A DNA stretch of 64,000 nt from Candidatus Omnitrophota bacterium (GTDB lineage Bacteria > Omnitrophota > Gorgyraeia > Tantalellales > Tantalellaceae). The translations under genes and the position numbers were made by a program. Under the pieces are notes generated by a model, which was not told the DNA's origin, did not search any database, and saw only the letters and a list, made by a program, of their open reading frames with translations. Where the stretch lies: assembly GCA_015231405.1 (NCBI GenBank), contig JADGBR010000004.1, forward strand, positions 189 to 64,188, in the 5' to 3' direction. Shown in pieces: positions 26,642 through 50,111 of the stretch (within the stretch, counting starts at the first letter, position 1; the number at the start of each line of letters is the position of its first letter).

Positions 26642-26676
26642 TGCGAGTCCGCCACAGGAGGACGAAGCAATCTCTC
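26634..26676. repeat. third copy of the short palindromic repeat (GCCCGTCATTGCGAG-TCCGCCACAGGAG-GACGAAGCAATCTC)
   Basis: Shares the CGTCATTGCGAG ... GACGAAGCAATC ends with the 19801-19850 and 19891-19927 copies. It lies at the junction of the 25232..26641 and 26638..27645 ORFs. Confidence 0.45.
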
Positions 26677-33756: not shown

Positions 33757-34857
33757 TCATAATAATCTTTCAAAATGGCTTATTACCTTCTTATATTCGG
33801 GCCATTGCCCGATATCGGTATAATCGTCTTCCTTCACGGGATAAAACAGAACTTTTTCACCTTTGGCGAGAAGGATACTTATGAGATCGGTCATATCGAA
33901 CTTTTCCCCGTCAGGGATATATTCCAAAACCGACTTATTGGCGACATATACTCCGGTATTTATATTGAACGTGTATTCCGGTTTTTCCTTAAGGCTTTTA
34001 ACGCTCCCTATTTCATCAGACTCTACTACTCCGTAAGGTATTATGTAATCTTTTATGGATGTCAGCATAGTGAGGGCAGCCTTTTTACCGACATGCATAG
34101 CAAGGACCTCCGAGAAATCGGCTTTCACCATAACGTCACAATTGTTCACGATAAAGTTCCCATCTATTTTGTCCCGCAACAGTTTAAGGCTCGCGGCCGT
34201 ACCCATATAACTCACTTCCTTGATGAATTCTATGTCAAAACCATGTTCCACGCCGTTAAAATACGATATCACCATATCGCTCTTATAATTCAATGTCACA
34301 AAGAACTTTTCTACCCCCTGGTCGCTGAATTTATTCATTATAAGCTCAATAATTGGCTGTTCGTTAATTGGTATGAGAGGTTTGGGAAGTATTTTCGTGA
34401 AAGGCGCCATTCTTTCTCCCCGTCCTCCGGCCATAATAACCACCGGGATCGATATAGTCCCATGCTTAAATACTTCCCCGTATTTTTCCTCGAAGAGCAT
34501 ATCCCACGTTATGTAGTCGACAAGCCGTTCTTCGTCATCGACTATCGGCAAAAGCTCCAACCTGTTACCCACTATGATCTCCTTCACCTCGTCAGAGCTG
34601 TACTGCCCTTTTTTCACCCTGGCAGGCGTCCCGCAATAATAGGAGGAGATAGGTCCATTGAGATCCCTGCCATCCAGTATTATTCTCCTGATATCACCGT
34701 CGGACAACGTCCCAAGCAGTTTTTTTCCAGGATCGACAACTAACAATATCCTTTTACCGGTCGAGTTCAGTATTTTGAGCGCCTGTTTAAGGCTGATATT
34801 CTCATTCACCAGAATTTCTTCATCCATTTCTTTTATCCTTTCCTTTTTTGCGGTCAT
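33757..34857 (-). CDS. CBS-domain sugar-phosphate nucleotidyltransferase (PtmE-like, GDP-sugar forming)
   Basis: N-terminal tandem CBS region (LGTLSDGDIRRIIL). The NTP-transferase motif is VVIMAGGRGERMAPFTKILPKPLIPI. Confidence 0.75.
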   Translation of the reverse strand: MTAKKERIKEMDEEILVNENISLKQALKILNSTGKRILLVVDPGKKLLGTLSDGDIRRIILDGRDLNGPISSYYCGTPARVKKGQYSSDEVKEIIVGNRLELLPIVDDEERLVDYITWDMLFEEKYGEVFKHGTISIPVVIMAGGRGERMAPFTKILPKPLIPINEQPIIELIMNKFSDQGVEKFFVTLNYKSDMVISYFNGVEHGFDIEFIKEVSYMGTAASLKLLRDKIDGNFIVNNCDVMVKADFSEVLAMHVGKKAALTMLTSIKDYIIPYGVVESDEIGSVKSLKEKPEYTFNINTGVYVANKSVLEYIPDGEKFDMTDLISILLAKGEKVLFYPVKEDDYTDIGQWPEYKKVISHFERLL

Positions 34858-36001
34858 TAAAGACTTTTTTTATTATGTCCTTAAGCGGCGCCCTTTTAAG
34901 AACACGTAGAACTATTAAAAGCCCGTCTTTGGAGTAATACGGATTAACTGTATTCGCCAGGTTCTCCCTGAACTTTCCGGATAATAGCAATTCTAGGGAC
35001 CTCAAGATAGGCTCGCTTCTAGCTTCACAGTCTATGACGCTTGACCCTTTTTCCCTGCCTTTCTGCCTATTACCGATATTTACGGTCCCTACCTTGAAAC
35101 TCGGCGCTTCTATGATCCCACTTGATGAATTCCCTACCACTCCATCCACGTTTCTCATTGCGGATAAATACCCTATCCGGCCCATAGAGGTAACCGCGAA
35201 GGCTCTTTTCCTATTTGCTTTCACATATCCATCTATCAGGCGGTTAATACTCCTTCCACCGGTATCGGCGTTGGTCTTGGTAAATATGACCGTTATATCT
35301 TTAAATCGGTCCAACGCTTTAATAAGTTCACGCATTTGCCGTTCCTGCGTTCTTTCCTCGAGCGTCACCGGGTGATAGGTTACAAGAAGGTTCTTTGCAC
35401 CGAATTTCACGCCATACTTATTCTCCAGCTCTTTTTTACCCAGAAGATCTTTTGTTTTAATTCCGTCCAGGTGGAACGCCCCGACACGAAAAACCCTTTC
35501 CGGAGCCTCGCCGAGCTGTATCACCCTCTGCCTCGCCCGTTCCGTCAGGGTGAAATGATAATGGCTCATCTTGGTTATGGAATGCCGTATCGCCTCGTCA
35601 ATCGCCCCAACGGTAGTCTCCCCCCCGGCTATGTGAGCTATGGGTATCCTATGGAACATCGCCGCGGAAGCTGCCGCTAATATCTCGTAACGATCCCCCA
35701 GTAAGAGAAGCACATCCGGCCGAAACCTATCGAATATCGCCGAAAAACCCCGAACGCCTTTAGCGAAAGCCGCGGCAATATCCTTTTCCGTATCCCCTTC
35801 AAGACCGATATCCACCCTTTCATTTATGATAAACCCGTCATTCTCTATTTCCCGGACGGTCATCCCGTGATATTTAGAAAGATGCGCCCCGGTCACGAAG
35901 ATATAAAGCTTGAAAGCTTTGTCCTTAGCGATCTTCTCAATGAGCGGCTTCAATATCCCATACTCGGCCCTTGTGCCTGTGACCACAGCGATCTTTTTCA
36001 T
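34820..36001 (-). CDS. legG: UDP/GDP-N-acetylglucosamine 2-epimerase (hydrolysing), NeuC/LegG family
   Basis: MKKIAVVTGTRAEYGILKPLIEKI...HIAGGETTVGAIDEAIRHSITKMSHYHF, the characteristic NeuC N-terminus and HxxGGE core. Confidence 0.8.
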   Translation of the reverse strand: MKKIAVVTGTRAEYGILKPLIEKIAKDKAFKLYIFVTGAHLSKYHGMTVREIENDGFIINERVDIGLEGDTEKDIAAAFAKGVRGFSAIFDRFRPDVLLLLGDRYEILAAASAAMFHRIPIAHIAGGETTVGAIDEAIRHSITKMSHYHFTLTERARQRVIQLGEAPERVFRVGAFHLDGIKTKDLLGKKELENKYGVKFGAKNLLVTYHPVTLEERTQERQMRELIKALDRFKDITVIFTKTNADTGGRSINRLIDGYVKANRKRAFAVTSMGRIGYLSAMRNVDGVVGNSSSGIIEAPSFKVGTVNIGNRQKGREKGSSVIDCEARSEPILRSLELLLSGKFRENLANTVNPYYSKDGLLIVLRVLKRAPLKDIIKKVFNDRKKGKDKRNG

Positions 36002-37044
36002 AATTCTATCTGCTCATCCTTCATGAAATCCCTTTTAGCGCTCTTCCCTATGACCGTATCCCAGGCCACCGGTGATAATCCCGTACCCGGCCGTTTGACC
36101 GTTATATTGGAATTCGCGAATATCTCATTCTTCTTAATATCTTTCGCGGCCACTATGCTTTTCCTGGCATGGGACTTATTAAGAAGTTCTCCCCGTGTAG
36201 ACCGTTTCACGCCATCTCCTATTGCTTTTTCGATATTCCTGATGGATCGGACGAGGGCCCCCAACTCTTTCTGGTCAAGCGAAGCTTTGTGATCGGGCCC
36301 CTTCATTTTTTTATCGAACGTAAAATGCTTTTCTATTACTTCCGCCCCAAGAGCTACTGCGGCTACTGACGCCTCCAGCCCAAGAGTATGGTCGGAAAAC
36401 CCTACTTTGACCCCGAAAACATCCCGCATAGTGAGCATTGCCTTAAGATCAAGCTCGTTAAAAGGAGCGGGATATTCCGTTCGGCAATGCAGCAGTGTTA
36501 TGTCTTTTCTGGCAGTCCCCGCGAATGTGAGGACATCCATAGCGGCTTTTATCTCGCCCATATCCGCCATCCCGGTCGACATTATGATCTTTTTCCCTAA
36601 TTTCCCGACCGCGCGAAGAAGAGGGAGATCGGTTATCTCGCCGGAAGGTATCTTGATAACCTCTAGACCCTGAGAAATAAGCATGGCCAAACTGTCAGTA
36701 TCAAAAGGCGCGGCCAGGAACATGATCTTTTTACGGTCACAATATTTTTTCAGCGCCGCGAACTCCGATCGGCCGAACTCGTACTTTTTGAGCATATCAA
36801 GCTGCGAAATGGCTTTACCGACCGTTTTTGTCTGATACGGCGCCTTGGATGCGGACGATGTTACTATTCTCGAGGCAATGAACGCCTGGAATTTGACCGC
36901 GTCCGCTCCGCTTTCCGCGGCGATATCTATCATACGTTTCGCGAGAGCTAAATCCCCGTTATGGTTTATCCCGGCTTCGGCTATAATAAAGACCTTTTTC
37001 ACCCCGCACCCTCTCCCGTCATCGTACTTTTTCATTATCAGCAA
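35998..37044 (-). CDS. legI: N-acetylneuraminate-synthase-family enzyme (NeuB/LegI-like nonulosonic acid synthase)
   Basis: IIAEAGINHNGDLALAKRMIDIAAESGADAVKFQ. The C-terminal antifreeze-like domain is present (GDGVKRSTRGEL...ITVKRPGTGL). Confidence 0.85.
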   Translation of the reverse strand: MLIMKKYDDGRGCGVKKVFIIAEAGINHNGDLALAKRMIDIAAESGADAVKFQAFIASRIVTSSASKAPYQTKTVGKAISQLDMLKKYEFGRSEFAALKKYCDRKKIMFLAAPFDTDSLAMLISQGLEVIKIPSGEITDLPLLRAVGKLGKKIIMSTGMADMGEIKAAMDVLTFAGTARKDITLLHCRTEYPAPFNELDLKAMLTMRDVFGVKVGFSDHTLGLEASVAAVALGAEVIEKHFTFDKKMKGPDHKASLDQKELGALVRSIRNIEKAIGDGVKRSTRGELLNKSHARKSIVAAKDIKKNEIFANSNITVKRPGTGLSPVAWDTVIGKSAKRDFMKDEQIEL

Positions 37045-37633
37045 CGTTCTTCGACACGATCGCCCCGGCGTTTATGAAACAATCCGTTCCTATTTTCACG
37101 TTCTGCACGATTATTGCCCCCGCCCCGATATGTGTCCTTGCCCCGACATTCACGCCCCCGCATAGTATCGCCCCCGGTGAAACATGGACAAAATCGGCTA
37201 TTACCGAGTCATGGTCTACCGAGGCCGATGTGTTAATTATCGCGTTACGGCCTACTACCGTTCCCGTGACCACCGTGGCCGAAGCGGCTATGAAAGACCC
37301 TTCACCTATACGAGCGTCCGCTGAAACATTGGCTTTAGGATGCATAATGAAGGGGAATCCGTAGCCTATCGCCCTGGCCAATTCATAAAGTTTTATACGT
37401 ATGCCGGGATCTCCTATCGACCCCTTAGTGATAAACGCGTTCCTGACACCGCTGGCATACACTTCTTTTAAAATATCATCGTTCCCAAGCACGGATATCC
37501 CTTTTATACTGACCCCGGCGGCAATCCCGGGATCAATTATGCCGAATATCTCGAATTCTCCCGACGTGGCAATCGCGTCTATCACCACACCCGCATGTCC
37601 GCCTCCGCCTATCAGAACTATTTTTTTACTCAT
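37019..37633 (-). CDS. legH: PglD/NeuD-family sugar N-acetyltransferase (LegH-like)
   Basis: MSKKIVLIGGGGHAGVVIDAI (N-terminal Rossmann-like) followed by hexapeptide repeats. Confidence 0.75.
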   Translation of the reverse strand: MSKKIVLIGGGGHAGVVIDAIATSGEFEIFGIIDPGIAAGVSIKGISVLGNDDILKEVYASGVRNAFITKGSIGDPGIRIKLYELARAIGYGFPFIMHPKANVSADARIGEGSFIAASATVVTGTVVGRNAIINTSASVDHDSVIADFVHVSPGAILCGGVNVGARTHIGAGAIIVQNVKIGTDCFINAGAIVSKNVADNEKVR

Positions 37634-37637
37634 AAGT

Positions 37638-38726
37638 TCACCCTACGATCTCTTTTAATTTGTGACATACTGCCATTATATCTTTCTCGGTGTTCAAAGT
37701 TGATCCCGGGAGACATATTCCGCTATCGAATATCATGTAAGCGTTACTGTAACAGCTTTTATCCTCTTCTTTGTATGGCGGGAATTCGATGAGCGGCGTG
37801 AACACCCTCCTCGTCGGGATATTTGACCGTTTCAGCTCATCTATTACGCCTGTAACATCTATCCCCTCACCGAATGAAATACAGCTAAGCCAATATGAAC
37901 TTCTCGCGCCTTTATATTGTTCCTGGAAAGAGATCCCGTCTACCCCGGAGAGCTCCGCACGATAGATATCGTTAAACCGCCTTTTAAGGGCAAGGAATTC
38001 CCCGACCCGTTCTAGTTGCGCGAGGCCCAGCGAAGCCGCGATATTACTAAGCCTCAAATTATATCCGACCTCTGAATGGAAATAAAAAGCCCCCTCTTCC
38101 CTAGCCTGGTTAACAAGAAAACGTATATGTCCTATCTTATTGGGATCTTTCCCTGATATCATACCTCCGTTCCCGGTTGTGATGAGTTTATTCCCGTTAA
38201 AACTAAAACACCCAAATTCGCCTAAAGTTCCGGTCAGCTTCCCTTTATATTCGGCGCCAAGGCTTTCCGAAGCGTCTTCGATCACCGGAACACCGTGTTT
38301 TTCGCCAATATCAAGCAACTTGTCCATATCGCAGGGGTTCCCATAAAGATGGACAGGGATGATCGCCTTTGTCCTTGCCGTTATCTTAGAAGCGACAAGC
38401 TCAGGTATCATGTTCCAGGTCTTTTCGTCGATATCGACAAAAACCGGTTTAGCCCCGACATAACTGACGGGATATACCGTCCCCACAAAGGTTATGACAG
38501 GAACGATGACCTCATCGCCTTTCGATACCCCGAGCTCGTGAAGGGCCATATGCAAGGCTGACGTCCCGCTCTGACATGAAACACAGGGACCCGCTGCCAG
38601 AAAAGAAGCGAACCTTTTCTCGAACTCGTTCACAAAAGGGCCTATCGACGAAACATATCCCTCGTCTATGGCCTTACACAGATATTCTTTCTCAACGCCT
38701 TTCAAATTCGGAGCGTCCAGGAACAA
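37638..38726 (-). CDS. legC: DegT/DnrJ/EryC1-family PLP aminotransferase (LegC/PseC-like)
   Basis: N-terminal FLDAPNLKGVEKEYLCKAIDEGYVSSIGPFVNEFEKRFA, with the typical fold-type I aminotransferase length and motifs. Confidence 0.85.
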   Translation of the reverse strand: MFLDAPNLKGVEKEYLCKAIDEGYVSSIGPFVNEFEKRFASFLAAGPCVSCQSGTSALHMALHELGVSKGDEVIVPVITFVGTVYPVSYVGAKPVFVDIDEKTWNMIPELVASKITARTKAIIPVHLYGNPCDMDKLLDIGEKHGVPVIEDASESLGAEYKGKLTGTLGEFGCFSFNGNKLITTGNGGMISGKDPNKIGHIRFLVNQAREEGAFYFHSEVGYNLRLSNIAASLGLAQLERVGEFLALKRRFNDIYRAELSGVDGISFQEQYKGARSSYWLSCISFGEGIDVTGVIDELKRSNIPTRRVFTPLIEFPPYKEEDKSCYSNAYMIFDSGICLPGSTLNTEKDIMAVCHKLKEIVG

Positions 38727-38738
38727 TTTACCCCTCCC

Positions 38739-39713
38739 CTAAAGAACAAAACAACTTTTCTTGAAGTCGACTATCTTTTTAAGCAGATCCCTCGAATCCC
38801 CTAAATTCAAAGTACTTTTAACACCTTTGACGCCTATATGATCGAAAAAGTATTTGAGCTGGTCCAGATACATATTGTTTACCCCAGGATCGACGACCGA
38901 GACATTCTTCCCTTTCCCCGAACACACTGTCACCTTGTTATTAAAGAAATCGCCAATGATATACCCGTCTTCATGATCGACTATAAGCTTCCGCTCTTTA
39001 AAATGGCTCAGATAATTCAGATGCATGATCCCCTTAACCCCGTTCTCGAGGGAGAACACTATATCCGCGTAATCCTCCGTATCGACGGTGATATCCGCCA
39101 TCCGGCCGCAAGAGCCGGACAAACATTTTATCGGTGAAAAGAGATACTCCAGATAATCCAGCTCATGAGAAAGATCAAGGATAACTCCACCACCCATATT
39201 CCTATTAGAAGAATAACTCCTGCGCCAATCGCTCATCGATCTCCATTCAGGGAGATAAGAAGACGAGACCGACCTGACATGCAATACTTTAACCCCGTTC
39301 AATAATCCCTTAAGTTTATCCATTACGGGATGGAACCTCATGCAATAAGCTACATAAGCCGTCAGACCTTTCTTGTCGCATATCTTTTCAAGTTCTTCCA
39401 CTCCTTCCATTGAATTCGACAAAGGTTTTTCAATAAAAAGATGCATCCCGCGCTTGGCGCACTCCAAAGCCGTTCCCATATGCATCCCCGTGGGATTTGT
39501 TATAAAAGCGATATCCGGCCTTATCTTTTCGACACTATTCCAGTCAAATATCTCTTGAATATCAAGATCGTTCTTTTCGCGGTCCGAAGAGCTCCGGAAA
39601 GCGAAAAGCTGATGCCCATAATTATCCGCGATGAGTTTCGCGTGCCTGGCCCCTATGGCCCCCAACCCAAAAAATATGATCTTCATCCGTTCACCATGCG
39701 GTATATCCCCCAT
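38739..39713 (-). CDS. Gfo/Idh/MocA-family NAD(P)-dependent oxidoreductase
   Basis: MKIIFFGLGAIGARHAKLI (GxGxxG Rossmann) plus the C-terminal alpha/beta domain. Confidence 0.75.
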   Translation of the reverse strand: MGDIPHGERMKIIFFGLGAIGARHAKLIADNYGHQLFAFRSSSDREKNDLDIQEIFDWNSVEKIRPDIAFITNPTGMHMGTALECAKRGMHLFIEKPLSNSMEGVEELEKICDKKGLTAYVAYCMRFHPVMDKLKGLLNGVKVLHVRSVSSSYLPEWRSMSDWRRSYSSNRNMGGGVILDLSHELDYLEYLFSPIKCLSGSCGRMADITVDTEDYADIVFSLENGVKGIMHLNYLSHFKERKLIVDHEDGYIIGDFFNNKVTVCSGKGKNVSVVDPGVNNMYLDQLKYFFDHIGVKGVKSTLNLGDSRDLLKKIVDFKKSCFVL

Positions 39714-40497
39714 CTACAACTATCTGGGTGCCTGTGACATACGCTGACAGGTCACTTGCCAGATAAGCTACGGCGCCTTTAAGGTCTTCCTCGACGGCCA
39801 TTCTCCCGAGCGGAGTTCTTTCATTATATCTCTCGTGAAATCTCACGTCCTGCCCGCGCCATACGCCTCCGGAAACTATCGAATTCACCCTTACTTCCGG
39901 TGCCAGCGTAGTAGCGAGATATCGCGCCAATTGCGTAAGTCCGGCCTTGGACACGCCATAAGCCGCCGGGCTTGTCATCCTGGTCCCTTCGTATAATCTA
40001 TTATCAGGAGCGATAGCTCCGTGTATCGATGAGATCAGAATTACCGAACTCTTCTTTGACTTTTTTAAAAACGGCTCCGCTTCCTGAGCGATAATAAAAG
40101 CCGAGCTCAGATTGACCTTCATGGCTTTATCCCACGCCACCAAAGTCTGCTCCTTGAACGGCACACCCCATCCGGGAAGGTCCGTAGTCCCTACCAAAGC
40201 GGCCGAGTGGACTATGATATCTATCCCTCCCAACGTTTCGGCCGTTCTCCTCACCCCAAGCCTTACCGCGCTCTCATCCTCTAGATCTACGGCGAACGGA
40301 CAAGCCCTGGCGCCATATCCGCTGGAATTAAGATCCTCGCATCTGGCGCGGCACACCCCGTCCGCGATGTCCCAAACAACCGTCTTCGCCCCGAGTTCCA
40401 TGAGCGCTTCCAGAACAGCCAGCCCGATATGCCCCGCGCCTCCCGTAACAAGCGCCGTTCTGCCGGAAAGATCCATCAGCTCTTTGATCTTCTTCAT
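39691..40497 (-). CDS. short-chain dehydrogenase/reductase (PtmA-like)
   Basis: TALVTGGAGHIGLAV (TGxxxGxG) and the YxxxK region YGVSKAGL. Confidence 0.8.
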   Translation of the reverse strand: MKKIKELMDLSGRTALVTGGAGHIGLAVLEALMELGAKTVVWDIADGVCRARCEDLNSSGYGARACPFAVDLEDESAVRLGVRRTAETLGGIDIIVHSAALVGTTDLPGWGVPFKEQTLVAWDKAMKVNLSSAFIIAQEAEPFLKKSKKSSVILISSIHGAIAPDNRLYEGTRMTSPAAYGVSKAGLTQLARYLATTLAPEVRVNSIVSGGVWRGQDVRFHERYNERTPLGRMAVEEDLKGAVAYLASDLSAYVTGTQIVVDGGYTAW

Positions 40498-40498
40498 A

Positions 40499-41212
40499 TC
40501 AACCGTTCCTTTTTTTGAAAAGATATTCGGCTATCCCTAGGTCTTCTTCCGTATCGATATCCATAGCCCTCTCTTCGGGAACCTCGACCGTCTTCACCTT
40601 CAGGTCAAACAACGACGTCATTCTGAACATCCGTTCGGTGACGCGCACAGCGTAAGCGACCGTCGTAATATCAAAGACCTCTGGAGACTCCTGCCGCCTC
40701 AACACTTTCCCGGCTGGCGGGATCACGAGCGTCGCGTCCCCGTTATCAACGATCTTAACCATATTGAAGAACGGACTTTTCTTTGATCTTGTTACGGTTA
40801 TCACTATATCCGCGTCACTCGCAAGAAGTCTTTCGACACAATTCTCAATATCCACAGGTTTCCGTAGCGGCGAAGTGGCCGGGATCGAGACCAGAATATC
40901 GACATCCCTACCGGTTATTTCCTTCATCGCCGTGACTGCGTGTTTCCAGGATAGCACTTCCGGAGAATCGTCCGAAGCGAGATATGCCGGCCTCATGAAA
41001 GGCACATCAGCCCCGGCCTTACGGGAGATCTCCGCTATCCTTTCATCATCCGTAGATACGATCACACGGTCCAGAAGATCGACCTTCTTCGCGCACTCTA
41101 TAGCGTGGGCTATTAGCGGTTTACCTGCAAAATCCCGGATATTCTTACCCGGCACGGTCTTGGACCCGCCCCTGGCGAAGATCGCGCCTAATATGTACGG
41201 CTTAGTCGTCAT
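40499..41212 (-). CDS. legF: CMP-nonulosonic acid synthetase (acylneuraminate cytidylyltransferase family, LegF/NeuA-like)
   Basis: ILGAIFARGGSKTVPGKNIRDFAGKPLIAHAIE. Family length ~235 aa. Confidence 0.8.
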   Translation of the reverse strand: MTTKPYILGAIFARGGSKTVPGKNIRDFAGKPLIAHAIECAKKVDLLDRVIVSTDDERIAEISRKAGADVPFMRPAYLASDDSPEVLSWKHAVTAMKEITGRDVDILVSIPATSPLRKPVDIENCVERLLASDADIVITVTRSKKSPFFNMVKIVDNGDATLVIPPAGKVLRRQESPEVFDITTVAYAVRVTERMFRMTSLFDLKVKTVEVPEERAMDIDTEEDLGIAEYLFKKRNG

Positions 41213-41979
41213 AAAGACCCTGTCAATCGGATATATTCCTTTGCCGATTCGTAGACCATAGCGGATATAAAATTAATGAACGGTTTATCATCCTTCTCAT
41301 GGCTTTGCGCTTTTTTAATGGCGTCGATATAGTCATTTCTCAGGATAGGCGGGATAATAGTTACAACATATCCTGTCTGCAAAAGCGCGAGATTCATAAG
41401 AAGCCGCGCCGTCCTCCCATTACCATCGACAAAAGGATGTATCGCTACAAGCTCTTTATGCAGACGCGCCGAAAATTCCACGGGATGATATTTTTTGCGC
41501 ATAGAAGCGATACTGCCGGTGAATTTTTTCATAAGAGCGGGGACTTCCGCGTGACTTGGCGGGATATAACTTGATCCTGTTATGAGTACGTTAACATTAC
41601 GGTATTTTCCGGCTTCCTTCTCATCCACGCGATAATAAAACAGATGATGAAGCCTCAAAACATCGTCTTCCGTTATTTCGCTGTTTTTCGCCAGGTCATA
41701 CAAAAAAGAGAACGCCTCACTATGACCCATCGCCTCGTAATGGTCTTTTAACGGCTTACCACCCACGGTTATCCCGTCCTCAATAACGATCTTTGTCTCA
41801 GTTTCGGTAAGCGAGTTCCCCTCGATAGCGTTCGAGGAATATGTCAGTCCTATACGGTAATACTCTTTAAGCTGTTTTAACGCGTTCAGAGACAATGGCC
41901 TCTCAGCATCGATCTTCGTTTTAAGCCCGTCTATCTCACTGATCCGATTTTCGTATTTGATCATACTATCCCCTTTCAC
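41209..41979 (-). CDS. fic: Fic-family protein (AMPylase), class II with N-terminal inhibitory helix motif
   Basis: Canonical HPFVDGNGRTARLLMNLAL (HPFx[D/E]GNGRxxR). The N-terminal SSNAIEGN matches the (S/T)xxxE(G/N) inhibitory motif. Its stop overlaps the legF start by 4 nt. Confidence 0.85.
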   Translation of the reverse strand: MKGDSMIKYENRISEIDGLKTKIDAERPLSLNALKQLKEYYRIGLTYSSNAIEGNSLTETETKIVIEDGITVGGKPLKDHYEAMGHSEAFSFLYDLAKNSEITEDDVLRLHHLFYYRVDEKEAGKYRNVNVLITGSSYIPPSHAEVPALMKKFTGSIASMRKKYHPVEFSARLHKELVAIHPFVDGNGRTARLLMNLALLQTGYVVTIIPPILRNDYIDAIKKAQSHEKDDKPFINFISAMVYESAKEYIRLTGSL

Positions 41980-41988
41980 TTAGGCCAC

Positions 41989-43356
41989 TTAGTCACCAGA
42001 CAACGCCTCCCAATACCCGCCTTTATCAGGGCCAACCCTCTTAATACGTCCCGAATACTTTAACTTCCTCAGATTCCACTCGACTCCGCGGCGCGTAAGA
42101 CCTGTCTTATCCATGATACGCTTTTGTGTGATACGTGGATCATCCTTAATAAGATCGAATATTATCTCCACAGTTTTCTCCACAGTTTTCTCCACAGCCT
42201 TATTTATTCCTATTCCCGGTCCCGCGTCATCTTCCCATTTTGGACGGTAGAAAACCACGACAAAGCCCGTCTTAAGGCGTTTGAACTCTACCTTGATCCC
42301 GGCAGAGACACATTCATCATGGATACGTTTTATACCGCTCCCCCAACGCTCTATATCCTTGGATTTATACATCGTTTCGGCGATCAAAGGATTGCGTAAG
42401 ATTGAATGTTCATTACCGAAAAAGAAATCCTCCGGATCGATCTCATCCGGAAAAAGACCGGGATTATAGATCTCAATACGGTCCCTGAAGATCGCCACCT
42501 CATTCCCCTTAGGGTTGGAATAATCCCGATGGCACAAAGAATTCCCGATAGCTTCACGGACAGCCTCAACAGGGATCTCAGGAATTTCCTTGCGTGGCCC
42601 TGTTTTTATTTCAGCCCGCCACTTCATATTCCCGTTAACGTAGACCTCGGCTTGCTGACGCAAACTAAAGAGATTCCCTTTGAACGATTTGATATCCAAA
42701 AACGTTACTTTGTCTGTCCCGGCAAAGATCGCGGCCTGAACTTCCAGTGTATTGTCGTCACAAAATAAAGTTTCAGCAGCATGCAACAAACGATTCCCAT
42801 TCAACAAATGCAATTTATGCAATGTCGTTTTTACATCAACGAAATCGAAATCTACACGCTTGGCCGTCTTTGCTTTACGCATAAACTCCTTAACGGCTTC
42901 TTCGTTAACATCGTTAATCGTCTTTTCGGATATCTCCCTCTCCCAAAGCAACTTCTTCTTGCCTAAAAAGAGCTTCTCGATCTCGCGAACGCTCAAAGCC
43001 TTATCCGACTCACCGACACGAATATATGCCCTGCCGTATGCAAAATACGGGTTATCGGTGCCATGGGCCTCGACCACGACGCACTCTTTGCCATCAATAT
43101 TACGATGGTCGACCTTAGGGAAAACCCTTGGCTCTGTATTATCGACGACCGCCTGCGTTACGTCCTTGATCGTATTGCGCCCGACCATCTGCCCCAGGAC
43201 CGTGCCATCGTCCGCGATCCCAAAATATACCTCCGCCCGTCCGCGCTTATTAAGCATCGCAACGACAGATATAACCGCTTCTTTAAGTTCCGAGGTCGAT
43301 TTTTTAAATTCTATTGTTTCCGATTCTTTAAAGATCATTATATTCGTCTCCAGCAA
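41989..43356 (-). CDS. AlbA_2 (Schlafen-like) domain + ATPase-like + C-terminal wHTH transcriptional regulator (COG2865-type)
   Basis: N-terminal ESETIEFKKSTSELKEAVISVVAMLNKRGRAEVYFGIADDGTVLG is the AlbA_2 signature. C-terminal HTH ITQKRIMDKTGLTRRGVEWNLRKLKYSGRIKRVG. Confidence 0.7.
   Translation of the reverse strand: MLETNIMIFKESETIEFKKSTSELKEAVISVVAMLNKRGRAEVYFGIADDGTVLGQMVGRNTIKDVTQAVVDNTEPRVFPKVDHRNIDGKECVVVEAHGTDNPYFAYGRAYIRVGESDKALSVREIEKLFLGKKKLLWEREISEKTINDVNEEAVKEFMRKAKTAKRVDFDFVDVKTTLHKLHLLNGNRLLHAAETLFCDDNTLEVQAAIFAGTDKVTFLDIKSFKGNLFSLRQQAEVYVNGNMKWRAEIKTGPRKEIPEIPVEAVREAIGNSLCHRDYSNPKGNEVAIFRDRIEIYNPGLFPDEIDPEDFFFGNEHSILRNPLIAETMYKSKDIERWGSGIKRIHDECVSAGIKVEFKRLKTGFVVVFYRPKWEDDAGPGIGINKAVEKTVEKTVEIIFDLIKDDPRITQKRIMDKTGLTRRGVEWNLRKLKYSGRIKRVGPDKGGYWEALSGD
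42165..42198. repeat. in-frame 12-nt tandem repeat (TCTCCACAGTTT, ~2.8 copies) inside the regulator CDS
   Basis: tctccacagttt tctccacagttt tctccacagc, which encodes VEKTVEKTVE on the minus strand. Confidence 0.8.
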
Positions 43357-43411
43357 TATTGCTTCGTGCTTTTCCGTTTAATAAATATCTGCTCTCCGGA
43401 AGAGTTAACTT

Positions 43412-44404
43412 TTATATGACATAGTTCCGGGATCCATATATATTCGGGCATTTCTTCTGATCCCTCTTAAACCAATCTACCGTTATCCTCAGCCCTTCGT
43501 CTATTGACGTCCCAGGGCGCCATCCGGTCAATTTATACAATTTATCGTTCGATCCCACGAGTCTTTCGACTTCGCTCCCTTCCGGTCTAACCCTAACAGG
43601 ATCTTTATTAATGGTTATTTTTCTGCCGATAATCCCCGATATTTTTTCTGCGACCTCTTTTACCGAGTATTCCGACCCGGTGGCTATATTAATAGCTTCA
43701 CCGATGACATTATCGGATGACGCTATCCGGACGAACCCCTCCACTACATCGGCGACGAACACAAGGTCACGCGTAGGCGTAATATTCCCCAGGGATATTT
43801 TATCCGCGCCCGAGAGCGCCTGCGTAATTATAGCGGGTATAACGGCTCTCGCCGACTGCCTCGGCCCGTATGTGTTAAAAGGCCGAACGGTGACGACCGG
43901 CAGGTTAAATGACTTGAAAAAAGCCTCAGACATGGCGTCAGCGGCTATTTTCGTGGCGGAATAGGGTGATTGTCCCTGTTTTGGATGACCCTCATCTATA
44001 GGAACTCGCAACGCGGTCCCGTACACCTCGGAAGTCGAAGTTACGAGGACCCTTTTCACCGACAGCTCACGGGCGGCCTGTAAAACATTGAGCGTACCTT
44101 TAATATTCGTATCCACATAGCTGTCCGTGGCATGATACGAATACGGGATACCTATAAGCGCCGCCAGGTGGAATACCGTATCAATGCCCTTAACTATCTG
44201 CCTCACATGTACTGGATCCCTCACGTCACCCAAAAAGATCTCAATATTATCCTTAATTTCGGTATCGAGAGTATCCAGCCACCCGTTGCTGTTGAAAGAA
44301 TTATAGCAACATAACGCTCGGACTTTCATCCCATCAAGGACCAGCCTTTCCGCTAAATGACTGCCTATAAAACCGTCGGCTCCTGTGACCAATACTTTCC
44401 TCAT
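43412..44404 (-). CDS. legB: NAD-dependent sugar-nucleotide 4,6-dehydratase/epimerase (LegB-like)
   Basis: MRKVLVTGADGFIGSHLAERL (GxxGxxG) and SPYSATKIAAD (YxxxK). The extended SDR fold is present. Confidence 0.75.
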   Translation of the reverse strand: MRKVLVTGADGFIGSHLAERLVLDGMKVRALCCYNSFNSNGWLDTLDTEIKDNIEIFLGDVRDPVHVRQIVKGIDTVFHLAALIGIPYSYHATDSYVDTNIKGTLNVLQAARELSVKRVLVTSTSEVYGTALRVPIDEGHPKQGQSPYSATKIAADAMSEAFFKSFNLPVVTVRPFNTYGPRQSARAVIPAIITQALSGADKISLGNITPTRDLVFVADVVEGFVRIASSDNVIGEAINIATGSEYSVKEVAEKISGIIGRKITINKDPVRVRPEGSEVERLVGSNDKLYKLTGWRPGTSIDEGLRITVDWFKRDQKKCPNIYGSRNYVI

Positions 44405-45420
44405 ACCCCTTCCTTCTTTTGTATCCCGGACAACTTGCCGTTAAAATCATCCCTAGACCTATCGTCCATTTCATAGAAGATCACACAATCTTTACAGGTA
44501 TCAATAGATCCGCGCATGAACTCATTCTGAAGCGCCCTTCTCGCCGGAGACCTGATTATCTCCTTTAACCCAGTCTTCTTGATATCCCCGAGAACAATAC
44601 GGCCATTAAAGTCCTGGCAACATATCACCGCTTTCCCTGAAGGGGAGAAAGTTATCGTTTCAAATATATTAGCGCAATAATCGACGTTTTTTCGAAGCTG
44701 GAACGAATACATATTGGCCCTGCACCGTTCATCCTTAAAATCTCTGTAACGTATCCGCCCTTCTTCCCAGTCAAATACTCCCATGGTTTTACCATAATCG
44801 ACCCGGTCGACATATTTTGACCACAAGCCATTAAATTTCTCGATATCGGTCTCCCTATTAACCATTACTGAGATCGAAATATATGGTTTAATTTTCTGCC
44901 CCGACAGGTATTCCTTAAAAGCTCTGATATTACTGAGTACGACGTCATAGCTGCAGTTCTTTCTGTAATACTCATAGCTTTTTCTATCCCACCCCTCAAT
45001 GGAATATTTTATCCAATCCACCTTTGATAAGGCTTCAAAATGCCGATCAAGGAATTGTGCGTTCGTAGAGATGATCACATGGAACTTTTTGTCTTTTAGA
45101 TAACGTATGTATTTATCGATATTCGGATGGAGCAATGATTCTCCGCTCGCGTACAACCTCGTCTCCTTTATTCCCAGATGATCCGCCTGATCGACCAGAT
45201 CGTAAAAAACCTGATCTTCCATATTAACTCCAGGGCCGGAAGACACCAAAGTCCTGGGGCAAAAAGGGCATTCGGCGTTACATATACTTGTTACGTCTAT
45301 CACTATAGTACTAGGAAAAAACAAACCGCCGAAAAGGCGCTTCTTTATACGATCCCTCACTCCGGCATTCCCGATCTTTTTAACTCTTCTAAGCAAAAAA
45401 TTCTTTAAATATTTTCGCAT
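44401..45420 (-). CDS. radical SAM protein with SPASM/twitch-like C-terminal Cys cluster (paralogue 3)
   Basis: CNAECPFCPR. C-terminal CANIFETITFSPSGKAVICCQDFNGRIVLGDI...CKDCVIF. Confidence 0.75.
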   Translation of the reverse strand: MRKYLKNFLLRRVKKIGNAGVRDRIKKRLFGGLFFPSTIVIDVTSICNAECPFCPRTLVSSGPGVNMEDQVFYDLVDQADHLGIKETRLYASGESLLHPNIDKYIRYLKDKKFHVIISTNAQFLDRHFEALSKVDWIKYSIEGWDRKSYEYYRKNCSYDVVLSNIRAFKEYLSGQKIKPYISISVMVNRETDIEKFNGLWSKYVDRVDYGKTMGVFDWEEGRIRYRDFKDERCRANMYSFQLRKNVDYCANIFETITFSPSGKAVICCQDFNGRIVLGDIKKTGLKEIIRSPARRALQNEFMRGSIDTCKDCVIFYEMDDRSRDDFNGKLSGIQKKEGV

Positions 45421-45424
45421 AATT

Positions 45425-46591
45425 TTACGGTCTACTGGGCTTATTCCATAGACTGTTCTCGGTCTTTTTGGAAGTTATCACATTTACTCGCGCCGAAACA
45501 ACAATGCTCTCTATCTGCTTATAGATATGATGATATTTCCCGTCATTAATGATCATATCCATTGCAGCTTCCCGCTTATTCTTTCTTTCCCGACCTTTTT
45601 TGTCAAAGTATTTGAAATTAATCGTCTTAAGTTTTCTTGCCAATGGATCTGGCAAGCATTTATCTATTATCATAGCCGGCAAATAACTACGCTTATTGCT
45701 TTTCCTTCGCCCGCCCGCTATCGATCTTTCAAGATATTTCCGGAAGAAATCATTTGCGACCTCGATGTCAACATTGTCATATTGAGCAAGATATCTAGCC
45801 AAACAACACGATGCCTTATCGAGCCGCTGAGCATAATCCGCCCTATCCCTCACTGGGATATATGCATCACCTTCCCTTAGTGTATTTTTCGATATCGGTA
45901 TTACCTCACGAAACATATAGGGTTCATTAAAGACCTTCAGCTTGCCAAATATTATACTTAACCCCTGAGGGATCAATTCGCCAAAATACGGATCCGACGT
46001 GTTGTCGACCACTTCTTTCCACATCTTTCGCATATGCTCCGTCCGATGAACACCGTAAAAGCTGCTCCCCCTGTATTCATTATACAGGCTCTTTATCCTC
46101 TCGAATGGGCTATCCTGGTCGATTGACTTCGTAGTATAGTACAAAAGATTGTTCTTGAACTCCAACACCCTGTTCTCGTTTTCCTCTATATAGTGCGAGT
46201 AATATATACCGTGAGCGACCGAGTAACTCCTATTTTCCTCCAAATATGATATACACTTTTCCACCGTCTCAGGAATAATAAAATCATCATCCGCGCAAAT
46301 AACTACGTACGGCGTCTCAATTTCGTCAAGCGCATATTTAATTTTCGCCATGTAGAGTTCTTCGGACTTTACTTTTCTATATTTAATTTGCCTTATATTG
46401 AAATATTTCTCGACAACCTCGAACCCGTCATAACGGTCGCTGGTATCCATAACTATTATTTGCATAGGATACGCATAAGATTCATAGAAACGGAACAATC
46501 TTGACAGAAATAGGTACCTGTTCATCGTTGGAATGATCATCGTAATTTTGTCAAAAAGCCCGGTATTCATTTTTTCAGTTTTCATACACAT
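45425..46591 (-). CDS. GT-A-fold glycosyltransferase-like protein
   Basis: ITMIIPTMNRYLFLSRLFRFYESY...IIVMDTSD with DxD-like ICADDDFIIPE. The family is uncertain. Confidence 0.45.
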   Translation of the reverse strand: MCMKTEKMNTGLFDKITMIIPTMNRYLFLSRLFRFYESYAYPMQIIVMDTSDRYDGFEVVEKYFNIRQIKYRKVKSEELYMAKIKYALDEIETPYVVICADDDFIIPETVEKCISYLEENRSYSVAHGIYYSHYIEENENRVLEFKNNLLYYTTKSIDQDSPFERIKSLYNEYRGSSFYGVHRTEHMRKMWKEVVDNTSDPYFGELIPQGLSIIFGKLKVFNEPYMFREVIPISKNTLREGDAYIPVRDRADYAQRLDKASCCLARYLAQYDNVDIEVANDFFRKYLERSIAGGRRKSNKRSYLPAMIIDKCLPDPLARKLKTINFKYFDKKGRERKNKREAAMDMIINDGKYHHIYKQIESIVVSARVNVITSKKTENSLWNKPSRP

Positions 46592-46636: not shown

Positions 46637-48016
46637 TCAACCTTTCAAAATATTTAAATATTGCGGAGATACCGGTACTCCTATCGGCTTCTTCAATAGA
46701 TCATTCATGACACAAAAATAATACTCCAAAACATCATCAGGCAAATTAGTAAGATTGATCTCTTTTTCGTAGAAAAGATTCCCCAGGCTACTGACAAATT
46801 TCCATTGGTCCTTAACCACCCCTGCGTTTATACAATCCCTCCACAAACGTGTACCCGGCAATGGGGTCAAGTATGAAACTTTTCCCTTATTCTCTAATCC
46901 GTTCCTCCTTATAAAGCTTATCATCTCCTTTAGATCGTTCTCAGTGTCCTCGGGAAACCCTATTATGAAGTTAACCGCCACATCTATACCGTATTTTCTT
47001 AAAAGCCCTATTTTTTCTTCCATAATGTTCACATCGATATTCTTATTAACTTTATTAAGGGTCTGCTGGTTGACTGATTCGATCCCGATGGATATCACCC
47101 TCAATCCGCTATCCCTTCCCCATCCGCAGATATCCGGGTCGATCGCGTCGACCCTGCATTGGCCAATATAACTAAAATCCATTTTTCTTTCAGTTTTCCG
47201 CCTAACAAAGTCTTTAAAGTTGCTCTTTATGTCCAGAAAGTTTTCGTCGACAAAATAATATTTATTGTAGTCATACCTCGTCCTGACATAGCTTATCTCA
47301 TCCAGGACCGAATCGACGTCCCTTAGCCCTAAACCTTTTACTATTTTACTACAAAAAGAACAGTTTCCCTTACAGCCCCTTGAAGCCATGATCTCAAAAG
47401 ATTGCCCTGTTTCCCGCAGATAATTTATATAAAATTCCATATGCAACACGCTGTAATCAGGCTGAGATAGGTCCGATAACTTATATAGACCCCCGCTCTT
47501 TTTTCCCGCCAGTATCCTATAGCCTCTCTCGCCAACGACCCCATTCTTATTTCTCGCGTAACAGTCCAATGGCATCCCGGCTTTTTCACTGCCCCCGTTT
47601 ATATAATTAATTAATTCAGGGAACCTGGCTTCTCCTTCCCCGCAGACTATATAATCGCAAACACAATTATTCAATATCAGTTCAGGATCCGAAGTCGGAA
47701 GCGCCCCGCCATAGACTATTACGTTCCCGGGATCGATCGCTTTTGCGAGTCTCGCGAAGTGTTCTACCTGGTTAATATGGTCGTTACCGGCAAGAACGCT
47801 GAAGCCGACTATGGAGCCGGAGCCCGACAACCCAGCCCGGAAATGGTCATCCCGTTTTTCCGGATCAACGGGCACAAGATCGATCACTCTTGGTTCGATC
47901 CCGTTCTTTTTAAGCGCGTTAGCCAGCACAGCCAGCCATATCGGCAACTGGACCGCGACGCATTTCCTGGTCACATTCACTAAAATTACTTCTTTGCTTT
48001 TGCCAATATTTATCAT
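46637..48016 (-). CDS. B12-binding-domain radical SAM enzyme (class B)
   Basis: N-terminal VILVNVTRKCVAVQLPIWLAVLANALKKNGIEPRVIDL (B12-binding-like). Radical SAM motif MASRGCKGNCSFCSK. Confidence 0.8.
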   Translation of the reverse strand: MINIGKSKEVILVNVTRKCVAVQLPIWLAVLANALKKNGIEPRVIDLVPVDPEKRDDHFRAGLSGSGSIVGFSVLAGNDHINQVEHFARLAKAIDPGNVIVYGGALPTSDPELILNNCVCDYIVCGEGEARFPELINYINGGSEKAGMPLDCYARNKNGVVGERGYRILAGKKSGGLYKLSDLSQPDYSVLHMEFYINYLRETGQSFEIMASRGCKGNCSFCSKIVKGLGLRDVDSVLDEISYVRTRYDYNKYYFVDENFLDIKSNFKDFVRRKTERKMDFSYIGQCRVDAIDPDICGWGRDSGLRVISIGIESVNQQTLNKVNKNIDVNIMEEKIGLLRKYGIDVAVNFIIGFPEDTENDLKEMISFIRRNGLENKGKVSYLTPLPGTRLWRDCINAGVVKDQWKFVSSLGNLFYEKEINLTNLPDDVLEYYFCVMNDLLKKPIGVPVSPQYLNILKG

Positions 48017-48043: not shown

Positions 48044-48955
48044 TCAGGCAATTATTTCCTGCTTCTTTTCGCTTGAAAGGATATTGCATTCACGGCATAT
48101 TTTAATGCTGTTCTTATTCCCCGAGGAATGTATTTCCCTTAAACCCGTTATTTTACGGCCGTTAAATATCTGTATCGGGGAGTGATCATTGACATCTCCC
48201 AAAACATATTGACCATGATGAAGGTCTGAACAGCATAAAGGGACCCTGCCATCCCAGAATACCATAAACCTATCCCACAAGTGGTGACAGGCTATATCAC
48301 TTATATCATCCTGTCCCTCCCCCCCGGGATTTCCATCTCCCCTTATTTCTCCTCCCCATGAGTGCATATCATAGCCGATGATCATATCTTTTTTGCCCCT
48401 ATCGATCACGTTCTCCCAATAATTTTTAAACGCTTTCCATTCGTCAATATTGTTTTTCTGCCGTATGAATCTCATGACAAAACGGGTTTTATACCCCGCC
48501 CTGTCCCTTTTATGGATAATATCCCGGGCGTTGTCTGTTACTCTATCGAAATCGACACCCCCTCTAATGGCTTCATGCGTTTCTTTATTCACGCCGTCAA
48601 TGCTAAAAATTACCGTATCTAATCCCGAATCCAGGATCTTGTCCTGCCTTTGAGCATCCAAAAGGTCCCCATTTGTAGCGATAGCGATATTCCTATAGCC
48701 TTTGGCTTTTAAATAACTTATCTTATCAAAGATAGTTCTATCCAATAACGGTTCCCCCAAACCCCATAGATCAACCTTCTCGATTTGCTCATTATAAGGC
48801 GCCAGATCATCGGCGACCTTCCTGAAAAGCTCCATTGCCATTGTCCCTTTTTTCCTGTCCGTAGGCATGTCTATCGGGCACATACAGCAATGGGCGTTAC
48901 ACCCAAAAACCACCTCTATCTGTATCCTTTTTGGAACAATAATATCACTGCTCAT
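48044..48955 (-). CDS. radical SAM protein with SPASM/twitch-like C-terminal Cys cluster (paralogue 4)
   Basis: CNAHCCMCPID. C-terminal CHHLWDRFMVFWDGRVPLCCSDLHHGQYVLGDV...CRECNIL. Confidence 0.75.
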   Translation of the reverse strand: MSSDIIVPKRIQIEVVFGCNAHCCMCPIDMPTDRKKGTMAMELFRKVADDLAPYNEQIEKVDLWGLGEPLLDRTIFDKISYLKAKGYRNIAIATNGDLLDAQRQDKILDSGLDTVIFSIDGVNKETHEAIRGGVDFDRVTDNARDIIHKRDRAGYKTRFVMRFIRQKNNIDEWKAFKNYWENVIDRGKKDMIIGYDMHSWGGEIRGDGNPGGEGQDDISDIACHHLWDRFMVFWDGRVPLCCSDLHHGQYVLGDVNDHSPIQIFNGRKITGLREIHSSGNKNSIKICRECNILSSEKKQEIIA

Positions 48956-50111
48956 TTTTCTTACTCCTCAGCAATTCCTTGGGCTTTTCTATTTCGATCA
49001 AGGTCTTGTAAACCTGCCCGCCCCTGTGAACAAGAATATCGGGATATTTGGACAAGAATTCCAGAGCCCCATACAGTCTCTTATTTATTTCTTCCTGCGG
49101 ATAGAACTGGACACCGATCTTTTCGATCTTGGCATGAGGAAACCTCTCAAACGCGTGGACAGCGACCTCATCGAATATCTCAACGACATATTCTAATGTT
49201 TCTTTTTCATCAGATCCAGAAGCCGTCGGAAAGCCCACCATTATGTCCGTCCGCAATACAATATCAGGCCTCATTCTTTTAAGCTTTTTCAGATCGTCAT
49301 ACAGTCCAAGAACTACCGGCCGACGCTTCATCATGGACAACAAACGATCGCTTGTTGTCTGGATCAATACCTGAAAATCCTTTATTTTATTTTCACGCGT
49401 TAATAACCCGAACAGAACATCCTTATATTCATACGCCCAATCAGCGTTCACCTGGGTAAGATGAACAGCGGGAGCTATCTCCAAAACCTTTTTTATTAAA
49501 TCAGGGAAATATGGTCCGCCCAGATCCGTACCATAAGAACCCGTGTCATTGCCATGCAAAATAATGGTATGAGCGCCCGTCAGAACAGAGTTCCGCACAT
49601 CCTCGATTATTTGGGCAAAGGGCCGGCTTTTCAACTCACCGATCCCAAGTTTATGAGGACAATACGGACAATCAGACGAACATCCAGTCTGTATCAGGAT
49701 GAATCTTTTCCCGGGATCATAAAGTCTGTATTCCTCCTTGGCGGCGAATACATCCGGGTAAGGTACAGCCTCCAGAGATACCGAAGGATCGCTGACAATA
49801 TCCCCAAGCCTCTCCCACTCACCGGCGCCGATGGCCTGATCAGGGGCCAGTGTTCCAACCTCCTCGGGAAAAACCTTTGTCAAACACCCGAAAACGATCA
49901 CTTTAGCGCCTGTCCCCTTCGCCTCTTTGATCAAGCCCAAAGCTTCGTATCCGAGACTTTTAAACGCCCCGCAACAACCGACAATATGAACATCGGCGCA
50001 TTCCTTATCCGAAACCTTCTCCCATCCGTTAATATCAAGGAATCTGCCTACCCTGTTAAGTATAAGCTTGTACGGAGTGCAGACATTATCTTTTATTATA
50101 TATTTTTTCAA
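48945..50111 (-). CDS. MiaB/RimO-like radical SAM enzyme (methylthiotransferase N-terminal domain + radical SAM core, no obvious TRAM domain)
   Basis: The N-terminal MTTase-like Cys region reads VHIVGCCGAFKS...VIVFGCLT. Radical SAM motif GCSSDCPYCPH. Confidence 0.6.
   Translation of the reverse strand: MKKYIIKDNVCTPYKLILNRVGRFLDINGWEKVSDKECADVHIVGCCGAFKSLGYEALGLIKEAKGTGAKVIVFGCLTKVFPEEVGTLAPDQAIGAGEWERLGDIVSDPSVSLEAVPYPDVFAAKEEYRLYDPGKRFILIQTGCSSDCPYCPHKLGIGELKSRPFAQIIEDVRNSVLTGAHTIILHGNDTGSYGTDLGGPYFPDLIKKVLEIAPAVHLTQVNADWAYEYKDVLFGLLTRENKIKDFQVLIQTTSDRLLSMMKRRPVVLGLYDDLKKLKRMRPDIVLRTDIMVGFPTASGSDEKETLEYVVEIFDEVAVHAFERFPHAKIEKIGVQFYPQEEINKRLYGALEFLSKYPDILVHRGGQVYKTLIEIEKPKELLRSKKNEQ

Follow-up and report, generated by a model that had tools for sequence, protein, structure and literature searches.

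The 64,000-nt stretch of DNA analyzed here (hereafter the window; positions 189 to 64,188 of contig JADGBR010000004.1, Candidatus Omnitrophota bacterium assembly GCA_015231405.1) carries a long operon with nonulosonic-acid biosynthesis genes, in which two adjacent minus-strand genes lie between a LegB-like dehydratase gene and a LegF-like cytidylyltransferase gene. One of the two encodes a Fic protein and the other a COG2865 protein with AlbA_2 and helix-turn-helix (HTH) domains; coordinates are given in Table 1. A first-pass annotation made from the sequence alone had interpreted them as an AMPylase and a regulator that were either captured as a module or linked by regulation to glycan synthesis. 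Its open reading frame (ORF) positions were confirmed, as were its domain calls with Pfam. Both genes belong to known families, and their placement in a nonulosonic-acid operon is unusual and is without comparative support for a functional link.

The maximal Fic ORF (41209-41979, minus strand) encodes 256 amino acids from a GTG codon. The N-termini of homologues (MQYENR...) and a GGGGA Shine-Dalgarno-like sequence point to ATG 41964 rather than GTG 41979 as the start, which would give a protein of 251 amino acids; a comparable G-rich stretch lies 5' of the ATG in the homologues. The protein was 100% identical to P0001, a protein from a Candidatus Omnitrophica metagenome-assembled genome, and its sole Pfam match across the 256 residues was Fic (PF02661; E 6.7e-22, 78.6 bits against a cut-off of 24). 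The catalytic motif HPFVDGNGRTAR, reported as intact in the first-pass annotation, conforms to the HxFx(D/E)GNGRxxR signature of the Fic/Fido superfamily. A second motif, SNAIEG, lies 132 residues N-terminal to the catalytic histidine and has the (S/T)xxxE(G/N) form of the Fic auto-inhibitory motif, and both motifs were retained in 116/120 of the best Fic homologues. The closest solved structure was human FICD (E 2e-36 over approximately 220 residues), ahead of all bacterial Fic structures, and SNAIEG aligned with the inhibitory TVAIEGN helix of FICD. Judged by these motifs and alignments, the window Fic is a class II (auto-inhibited), FICD-like Fic, in agreement with the class originally proposed for it. 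The family is also highly conserved across phyla, with identities of 64-78% for proteins that carry the labels Elusimicrobia, Planctomycetota, Oligoflexia and Deltaproteobacteria.

Closer assignments of the Fic protein were considered and rejected. It is not an orthologue of FICD/HYPE, as no TPR domain was identified in the Pfam scan and the alignment begins at FICD residue 99. Membership of SoFic was rejected on a score of 28.3 bits for NCBIfam NF046030 (cut-off 550) and on the length of just 251 amino acids, without the SoFic C-terminal domain. A type II Fic/Doc toxin-antitoxin system was rejected because the neighbours of the gene encode a 449-amino-acid protein and LegF, with no small antitoxin gene. 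Analysis with PADLOC revealed a match to PDC-S04 (PDLC04840; E 1.6e-30) over profile positions 13-200 of 227, and a match to SoFic (E 5.4e-28) that covered only profile positions 62-270 of 361.

An HTH gene was observed 10-14 nt 5' of close Fic homologues at three other loci (L134 7805-7990, L222 7810-7989 and L007 9717-9986). Those of L134 and L222 encode Xre-type HTH_3 proteins of 59-61 amino acids that are 58% identical to each other; the L007 candidate is an 89-amino-acid ORF without a Pfam match on record, in which inspection by eye picked out a helix-turn-helix-like stretch. No match to these HTH partners was detected in the window by tblastn. This suggests an HTH-Fic two-gene unit in other copies, with the window copy standing without that HTH gene.

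The maximal COG2865 ORF (41989-43356, minus strand) encodes 455 amino acids from a TTG codon. As for Fic, the N-termini of homologues (M..KESETIEFK...) and a Shine-Dalgarno-like sequence point to a different start, ATG 43338 rather than TTG 43356, giving a predicted protein of 449 amino acids that is 100% identical to P0121 of the Candidatus Omnitrophica metagenome-assembled genome. With these starts the distance between the two genes is 24 nt; the 9 nt given in the first-pass annotation holds when counted from the GTG of the maximal Fic ORF. Pfam identified SLFN_AlbA_2 (PF04326; E 1e-17, 65.2 bits against a cut-off of 25.3), followed by HATPase_c_4 (PF13749; E 8e-19, above its cut-off) and by a C-terminal winged HTH domain. 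The sequence ESETIEFK corresponds to Ex4(E/D)xK, which has been defined as the Schlafen active-site motif (PMC13056530); it was retained in 107/110 full-length homologues, with E5, E10 and K12 invariant in 40/40 aligned sequences. Residues E262 and N266 of the GHKL ExxxN motif were likewise invariant in 40/40 homologues and, from the motif only, we infer that they are equivalent to E314 and N318 of RzAgo (preprint 10.64898/2026.05.29.728809). The PADLOC pAgo profile matched residues 21-330, and the Aga_SIR2-PNTD profile also fell on the Schlafen-GHKL part.

An AlphaFold2 model of the COG2865 protein was of low confidence (predicted local distance difference test score, pLDDT, 58.8; predicted template modelling score, pTM, 0.40), probably because the alignment held too little diversity, and its best region was the winged HTH (pLDDT 81-88). 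A Foldseek search with this low-confidence model returned 3lmm over the full length (E 9e-17) together with histidine-kinase CA and winged-helix domains, matches that are consistent with the Pfam domains and add little to them. The AlbA_2 and HTH domain calls are right, but the label of regulator undersells a fusion of Schlafen nuclease, GHKL ATPase and HTH with intact catalytic motifs; on its domains and motifs, the COG2865 protein is more aptly named a prokaryotic Schlafen-GHKL-HTH protein ("Schlatpase") whose nuclease motif is intact. In a literature search, the name "COG2865" appeared in just 8 papers, and none of these was functional. The Schlafen-HisKinase-HTH type is the second commonest of 55 bacterial Schlafen architectures and is found within 10 kb of known defence genes in 69.6% of cases; tRNA cleavage and phage protection have been published for other bacterial Schlafen architectures only (PMC13056530). 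The Schlafen and GHKL unit, for which the name "Schlatpase" was introduced, is responsible for ATP-dependent tetramerisation and tRNA cleavage by SLFN-pAgo; most proteins that contain it are small, and some of these end in a short HTH while others do not (preprint 10.64898/2026.05.29.728809). The match of the pAgo profile to the window protein fits this relationship.

The in-frame VEKTVEKTVE repeat noted in the first-pass annotation was recovered with Tandem Repeats Finder (TRF), though it is not peculiar to the window gene: the linker between GHKL and winged HTH carries other repeats with a four-residue period (KVKS, REKT, GQTG...) in most homologues. The repeat array was hypervariable in length and sequence among P0122-P0160, homologues that are otherwise 70-79% identical. 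Linker length probably varies by in-frame slippage of 12-nt units.

To place the pair in a comparative setting, we assembled 120 leg-type loci (1.58 Mb), comprising 80 LegB-homologue loci from metagenomes (57-64% identity), 36 LegF-homologue loci from genomes, whose distance (≤38% identity) restricted them to the absence count rather than fine synteny, and 4 near-LegF loci (58-61% identity) that represent 3 distinct neighbourhoods. Locus counts were made by tblastn with both proteins at a threshold of E ≤ 1e-5. Relatives of the Fic or the COG2865 gene were detected in 0/120 leg-type loci. The position between legF and legB, described in the first-pass annotation as fixed, is therefore not a feature of these loci, the near-LegF loci included. 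The near-LegF loci keep the order Gfo/Idh/MocA, LegF, SDR, NeuB without an insert. LegB is followed directly by LegC in 30/80 LegB loci, and neither Fic nor COG2865 was ever the next gene. The window order runs LegB, the pair, then LegF-SDR, with Gfo behind SDR, so that the pair lies at the junction of two blocks that are arranged differently elsewhere. The nearest non-self LegF homologues were just 58-61% identical and the best LegB homologue 64%.

We also examined where relatives of the two genes occur. Among 92 Fic loci, made up of close relatives and relatives on viral contigs, none contained a COG2865 relative or a leg-type gene (0/92), and a Fic gene was present in 0/4 of the other COG2865 contexts inspected. 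The best non-self relatives were 85% identical for Fic and 79% for COG2865, compared with 60% for LegF and 64% for LegB on the flanks. Five different contexts were seen for the nearest Fic homologues, which were 72-83% identical: 3' of two giant GH77 genes and 5' of a HicA-like gene; between cobalamin/heme genes and phosphotransferase system genes; inside a heme operon, directly 5' of hemB; within an island that also holds genes for BrnA and a zeta toxin; and adjoining an AAA_14/DUF4143 gene. Four different contexts were found for the nearest COG2865 homologues (70-79% identity), which adjoined a BrnT/BrnA pair, closed a type I restriction-modification (RM)-TIR-SIR2 island with an integrase as neighbour, adjoined LexA/ImuB genes, or followed an RM-SMODS-SIR2/HerA island with a Y1 transposase as neighbour. 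The inspected contexts of both genes were mostly toxin-antitoxin, restriction or transposase neighbourhoods, which bears out the statement that such genes are common in defence and toxin-antitoxin islands. Plasmid relatives were numerous (757 records for Fic and 96 for COG2865). On viral contigs, Fic relatives were at most 52% identical and a single COG2865 relative was 28% identical; with relatives as distant as these, there was no sign of a phage-borne pair. Both genes thus occur in unrelated contexts and without association with leg genes, an outcome that the first-pass annotation had named in advance as counting against its reading.

The 4-nt overlap (ATGA) between the Fic stop and the legF start is real. 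Its interpretation as a specific translational coupling to legF did not hold, as 6/37 junctions of the window operon overlap by 4 nt and the gene 5' of legF in the near-LegF loci, Gfo/Idh/MocA, overlaps legF in the same way in 2/3 neighbourhoods. The 250-amino-acid Fic homologues all share one C-terminal end (...RLxxSL*), and the 3' end of the L004 Fic homologue, which lies in an unrelated context, has identical nucleotides, TCTTTATGA. The legF ATG is therefore part of the native 3' end of Fic (TTATGA). The N-terminus of the window LegF reads MTTKPY, compared with MKPY in most near homologues, and this fits a junction at which the original start was replaced. In L007 (10001-10774), an 81%-identical Fic within a heme-biosynthesis operon has lost its stop, is extended by 7 codons and overlaps hemB (ALAD) by GTGA, a second instance of this family lying against a housekeeping gene without a spacer; tight packing on the 3' gene thus seems to be the way in which these Fic genes sit in operons, and not a leg-specific coupling.

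A scan of 40300-44600 identified 5 promoter-like sites (5.8 expected) and 2 terminator-like sites (3.5 expected), and none of either kind in the 73-nt and 24-nt spacers. GC content and GC at third codon positions (GC3) were 0.439 and 0.480 for Fic and 0.463 and 0.518 for COG2865, compared with means of 0.456 and 0.510 for 42 window genes.

Taken together, these data make it likely that two separate mobile accessory genes came to lie next to each other in this lineage, at a boundary between modules of a mosaic glycan locus. Their mobile, accessory character is indicated by the varied contexts of both genes, by relatives closer than those of the leg-type flanks, by the cross-phylum conservation of the Fic family and by plasmid relatives of both. 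On the same comparative grounds, the pair is not part of the nonulosonic-acid pathway and is not a conserved pair. Insertion would have occurred at the LegB / LegF-SDR junction, a recombination-prone site of a variable surface-glycan locus. Both genes would be transcribed by operon read-through, most likely so because no terminator or promoter signal sets the pair apart, and LegF would now be translated from the ATG within the 3' end of the Fic gene. By homology to other bacterial Schlafens, for which such behaviour has been shown, the Schlafen protein would form oligomers through the GHKL domain, where ATP binds, and would cut tRNA in response to a trigger. The Fic protein, again by homology, would be held inactive by the glutamate of the SNAIEG helix and, once released, would AMPylate a target or, in the manner of FICD, switch from AMPylation to de-AMPylation and back. 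For both genes, the most plausible role is that of a single-gene anti-phage or stress effector with built-in regulation, a type of module that gathers in variable loci.

Several observations weigh against this interpretation. The collections searched contained no near-isogenic leg cluster without the insert, and the insertion is to that extent inferred. No flanking direct or inverted repeats beyond chance size were found around the insert, and no tRNA, integrase or transposase was found in the window, so that neither search marks a route of entry. GC, GC3 and codon usage of both genes were within 1 to 1.1 standard deviations of the window genes; the compositional deviation sought over 41209-43356 was thus not found, although the test is uninformative because the cluster is itself heterogeneous. 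The homologue contexts inspected in detail were only 5 for Fic and 4 for COG2865. A defence function is less certain than insertion and stands at perhaps an even chance, because phage protection is not known for any member of either exact architecture. In E. coli, the HisKinase-type Schlafens that were assayed failed to protect against the phage panel used (PMC13056530), and PDC-S04 was inactive in a single test in a native host (preprint 10.1101/2024.12.20.629700).

The reading that would take Fic out of the defence setting holds that it is a housekeeping, FICD-like enzyme that reversibly AMPylates and de-AMPylates a conserved cellular protein, for example an Hsp70-class chaperone, and that its location is incidental. 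The rank of human FICD as best solved relative agrees with this, as does the identity kept across phyla, which suggests a conserved target, and the inhibitory-helix glutamate serves both AMPylation and de-AMPylation of BiP by FICD (PMC6826200). However, Fic is patchy, its contexts shift among close homologues and are often toxin-antitoxin or defence neighbourhoods or plasmids, and it has neither the TPR nor the membrane segments on which the substrate specificity of FICD depends (PMC8065156); we regard a housekeeping role as unlikely. The two genes could instead form one module, in which the HTH-bearing Schlafen-GHKL protein regulates or antagonises Fic or the two effectors cooperate in defence. 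They are on the same strand and close together, the Schlafen protein would replace the small HTH partner found directly 5' of Fic in L134, L222 and L007, and SoFic-type Fic proteins combine a fused C-terminal regulatory domain with a small antitoxin partner (PMC12249575). However, the pairing was seen neither at the other Fic loci nor in the other COG2865 contexts, and each protein has regulation of its own, Fic through the inhibitory helix and the Schlafen protein through the GHKL switch, which makes a single module more improbable still.

The regulatory reading of the first-pass annotation, in which Fic AMPylates a Leg enzyme or glycan target, the winged HTH protein controls the operon and coupling to legF keeps stoichiometry, draws on the position of the pair inside the operon, the overlap with legF and the lack of a terminator between them. 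Among the top results of a full-text search, none joined Fic or AMPylation and "legionaminic acid", which does not disprove the proposal. All of the nearest homologues of both genes lie in non-glycan contexts, however, neither gene was present in the leg-type loci, the overlap is generic both in the window operon and at legF starts elsewhere, and in a heme operon a member of the Fic family overlaps hemB as well. We therefore give this reading hardly any weight; of the alternatives offered in the first-pass annotation, capture fits the data and the regulatory link is unsupported. A more elaborate reading, in which Schlafen and Fic constitute a previously undescribed two-effector module (tRNase and AMPylase) that ties abortive-infection effectors to a phage-receptor glycan, or in which Fic switches the glycan off in infection by AMPylating a Leg enzyme, is very improbable.

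Table 1. Probable two-gene insert, its motifs and the neighbouring genes of the operon, in order of transcription (window coordinates)
Feature	Position	Strand	Basis or remark
Radical-SAM, B12-binding gene	46637-48016	-	
GT2 glycosyltransferase gene	45425-46591	-	
Radical-SAM, SPASM gene	44401-45420	-	
LegB-like NAD-dependent 4,6-dehydratase	43412-44404	-	Directly 5' of two-gene insert; Pfam GDP_Man_Dehyd/Epimerase
Spacer, 73 nt	43339-43411	-	LegB stop to Schlafen-GHKL-HTH ATG; read from sequence
Schlafen (AlbA_2)-GHKL ATPase (HATPase_c_4)-winged-HTH gene (COG2865), 449 amino acids	41989-43338	-	Pfam domains; predicted start from homologue N-termini
ESETIEFK, Schlafen nuclease motif Ex4(E/D)xK	43303-43326	-	Coordinates from sequence
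EAIGN, ExxxN motif in GHKL ATPase domain	42541-42555	-	
Perfect 12-nt x 2.8 tandem repeat encoding (VEKT)n	42165-42197	-	TRF; linker before winged HTH
Winged helix-turn-helix HTH_24, C-terminal	42040-42162	-	Pfam PF13412 E 2.6e-6, residues 399-439 of 455-amino-acid ORF
Spacer, 24 nt	41965-41988	-	GGGGA Shine-Dalgarno-like sequence before Fic ATG
FICD-like class II Fic gene, 251 amino acids	41209-41964	-	Pfam Fic
SNAIEG, (S/T)xxxE(G/N) auto-inhibitory motif	41818-41835	-	N-terminal to Fic core
Fic catalytic motif HPFVDGNGRTAR	41404-41439	-	Read from sequence
ATGA, Fic TGA overlapping legF ATG	41209-41212	-	Read from sequence
LegF-like CMP-nonulosonate cytidylyltransferase	40499-41212	-	Directly 3' of insert; Pfam CTP_transf_3
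SDR gene	39691-40497	-	
Gfo/Idh/MocA gene	38739-39713	-	
LegC-like aminotransferase	37638-38726	-	
NeuD-type acetyltransferase	37019-37633	-	
NeuB	35998-37044	-	
NeuC	34820-36001	-	
PtmE-like CBS-nucleotidyltransferase	33757-34857	-	

Between approximately 21.8 kb and 63.7 kb, every gene of the window is on the minus strand, and these genes make up one long glycan-biosynthesis cluster of roughly 42 kb. NeuB, NeuC and NeuD passed their NCBIfam cut-offs. LegB scored 473.9 bits (TIGR04180 cut-off 475) and LegC 385.9 (cut-off 420), and the sole curated-model match of the cytidylyltransferase was NCBIfam PseF at 153.6, under its cut-off of 205.7. By its gene content the flanking cluster is leg-type, a label that does not specify the exact sugar. 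The cluster contains at least 8 radical-SAM genes (3 with a B12-binding domain, 4 with SPASM and 1 other; 13124-14254, 23845-25218, 26638-27645, 31616-33184, 44401-45420, 46637-48016, 48044-48955 and 48945-50111, all on the minus strand), an unusually high content for a sugar-modification locus, and is also rich in methyltransferases. Large ORFs of 338-693 amino acids without a Pfam match at the thresholds used lie inside or beside it (29558-31606, 25232-26641, 15704-17785, 62574-63764 and 21867-22883, all on the minus strand). Near its 5' end are genes for a MarR-like HTH protein (60242-60751, minus strand; a weak match, E 4e-5, under the Pfam cut-off) and an ABC exporter (58403-60220, minus strand); if genes for operon regulation and glycan export are sought, these two are better candidates than the Fic/Schlafen pair. 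Outside the main operon, a 3-methyladenine DNA glycosylase gene (18805-19398, minus strand; Adenine_glyco E 1.9e-79) lies between glycosyltransferase genes. A giant ORF of 3490 amino acids (1021-11493, minus strand) combines three Laminin_G_3 domains with an RHS repeat and a PT-TG pre-toxin domain and resembles secreted proteins of the polymorphic-toxin or RHS type.

The value of these results is mainly corrective, in that a supposed regulator in a pathway operon gives way to two probable mobile accessory genes, and a gene annotated as "COG2865 regulator / RecG-like" belongs with the Schlafen-GHKL nucleases, a bacterial group recognised only recently. A common function is poorly supported by operon membership or by 4-nt overlaps. 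If the defence reading is true, defence-type genes lodge in long surface-glycan operons of small-genome, uncultured Omnitrophota, where they would be expressed by read-through and where an inserted gene supplies the start codon of the next pathway gene. The cross-phylum FICD-like Fic, often with a 5' HTH gene, and the hypervariable Schlafen linker are possible guides for work on both families, which are poorly understood.

The Fic/Doc toxin-antitoxin systems (class I FicT-FicA, VbhT-VbhA) share with the window gene the Fic core, mobility, toxin-antitoxin-rich neighbourhoods and, near some family members, HTH or small partners; however, the inhibitory motif of the window Fic is in the same polypeptide rather than in a separate antitoxin, and its NCBIfam VbhT and DOC_P1 scores were far under the cut-offs. 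SoFic (Millman et al. 2022, preprint 10.1101/2022.05.11.491447; PMC12249575) and PADLOC PDC-S04 are, like the window protein, stand-alone class II Fic proteins. SoFic differs in its size (approximately 361-374 amino acids), in a toxicity-regulating C-terminal domain that the window Fic does not have, and in the gene on the 3' side, which is legF here and not a small antitoxin-like gene. The PDC-S04 profile is matched by the window Fic, and the candidate is itself experimentally unverified. Human FICD/HYPE (PDB 4u04, 6i7g), the class II AMPylase/de-AMPylase of BiP, resembles the window protein in the inhibitory-helix motif (AIEGN) and in the catalytic loop HPF(V/I)DGNGRT(A/S)R; the window protein consists of the Fic core and inhibitory helix and, at 251 amino acids, is too short for the ~100-residue FICD N-terminal region. 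The COG2865 protein is closest to the prokaryotic Schlafen HisKinase-HTH proteins (pSlfn; Perez Taboada et al. 2026, PMC13056530), the same type under another name as the "Schlatpase"-HTH proteins of Kuzmenko et al. 2026 (preprint 10.64898/2026.05.29.728809). It shares with them PF04326 with Ex4ExK, PF13749 with ExxxN and a short C-terminal HTH, and its homologues adjoin RM, TIR, SIR2, SMODS and toxin-antitoxin genes, whereas the window copy is found in a glycan operon rather than in a recognised defence island.

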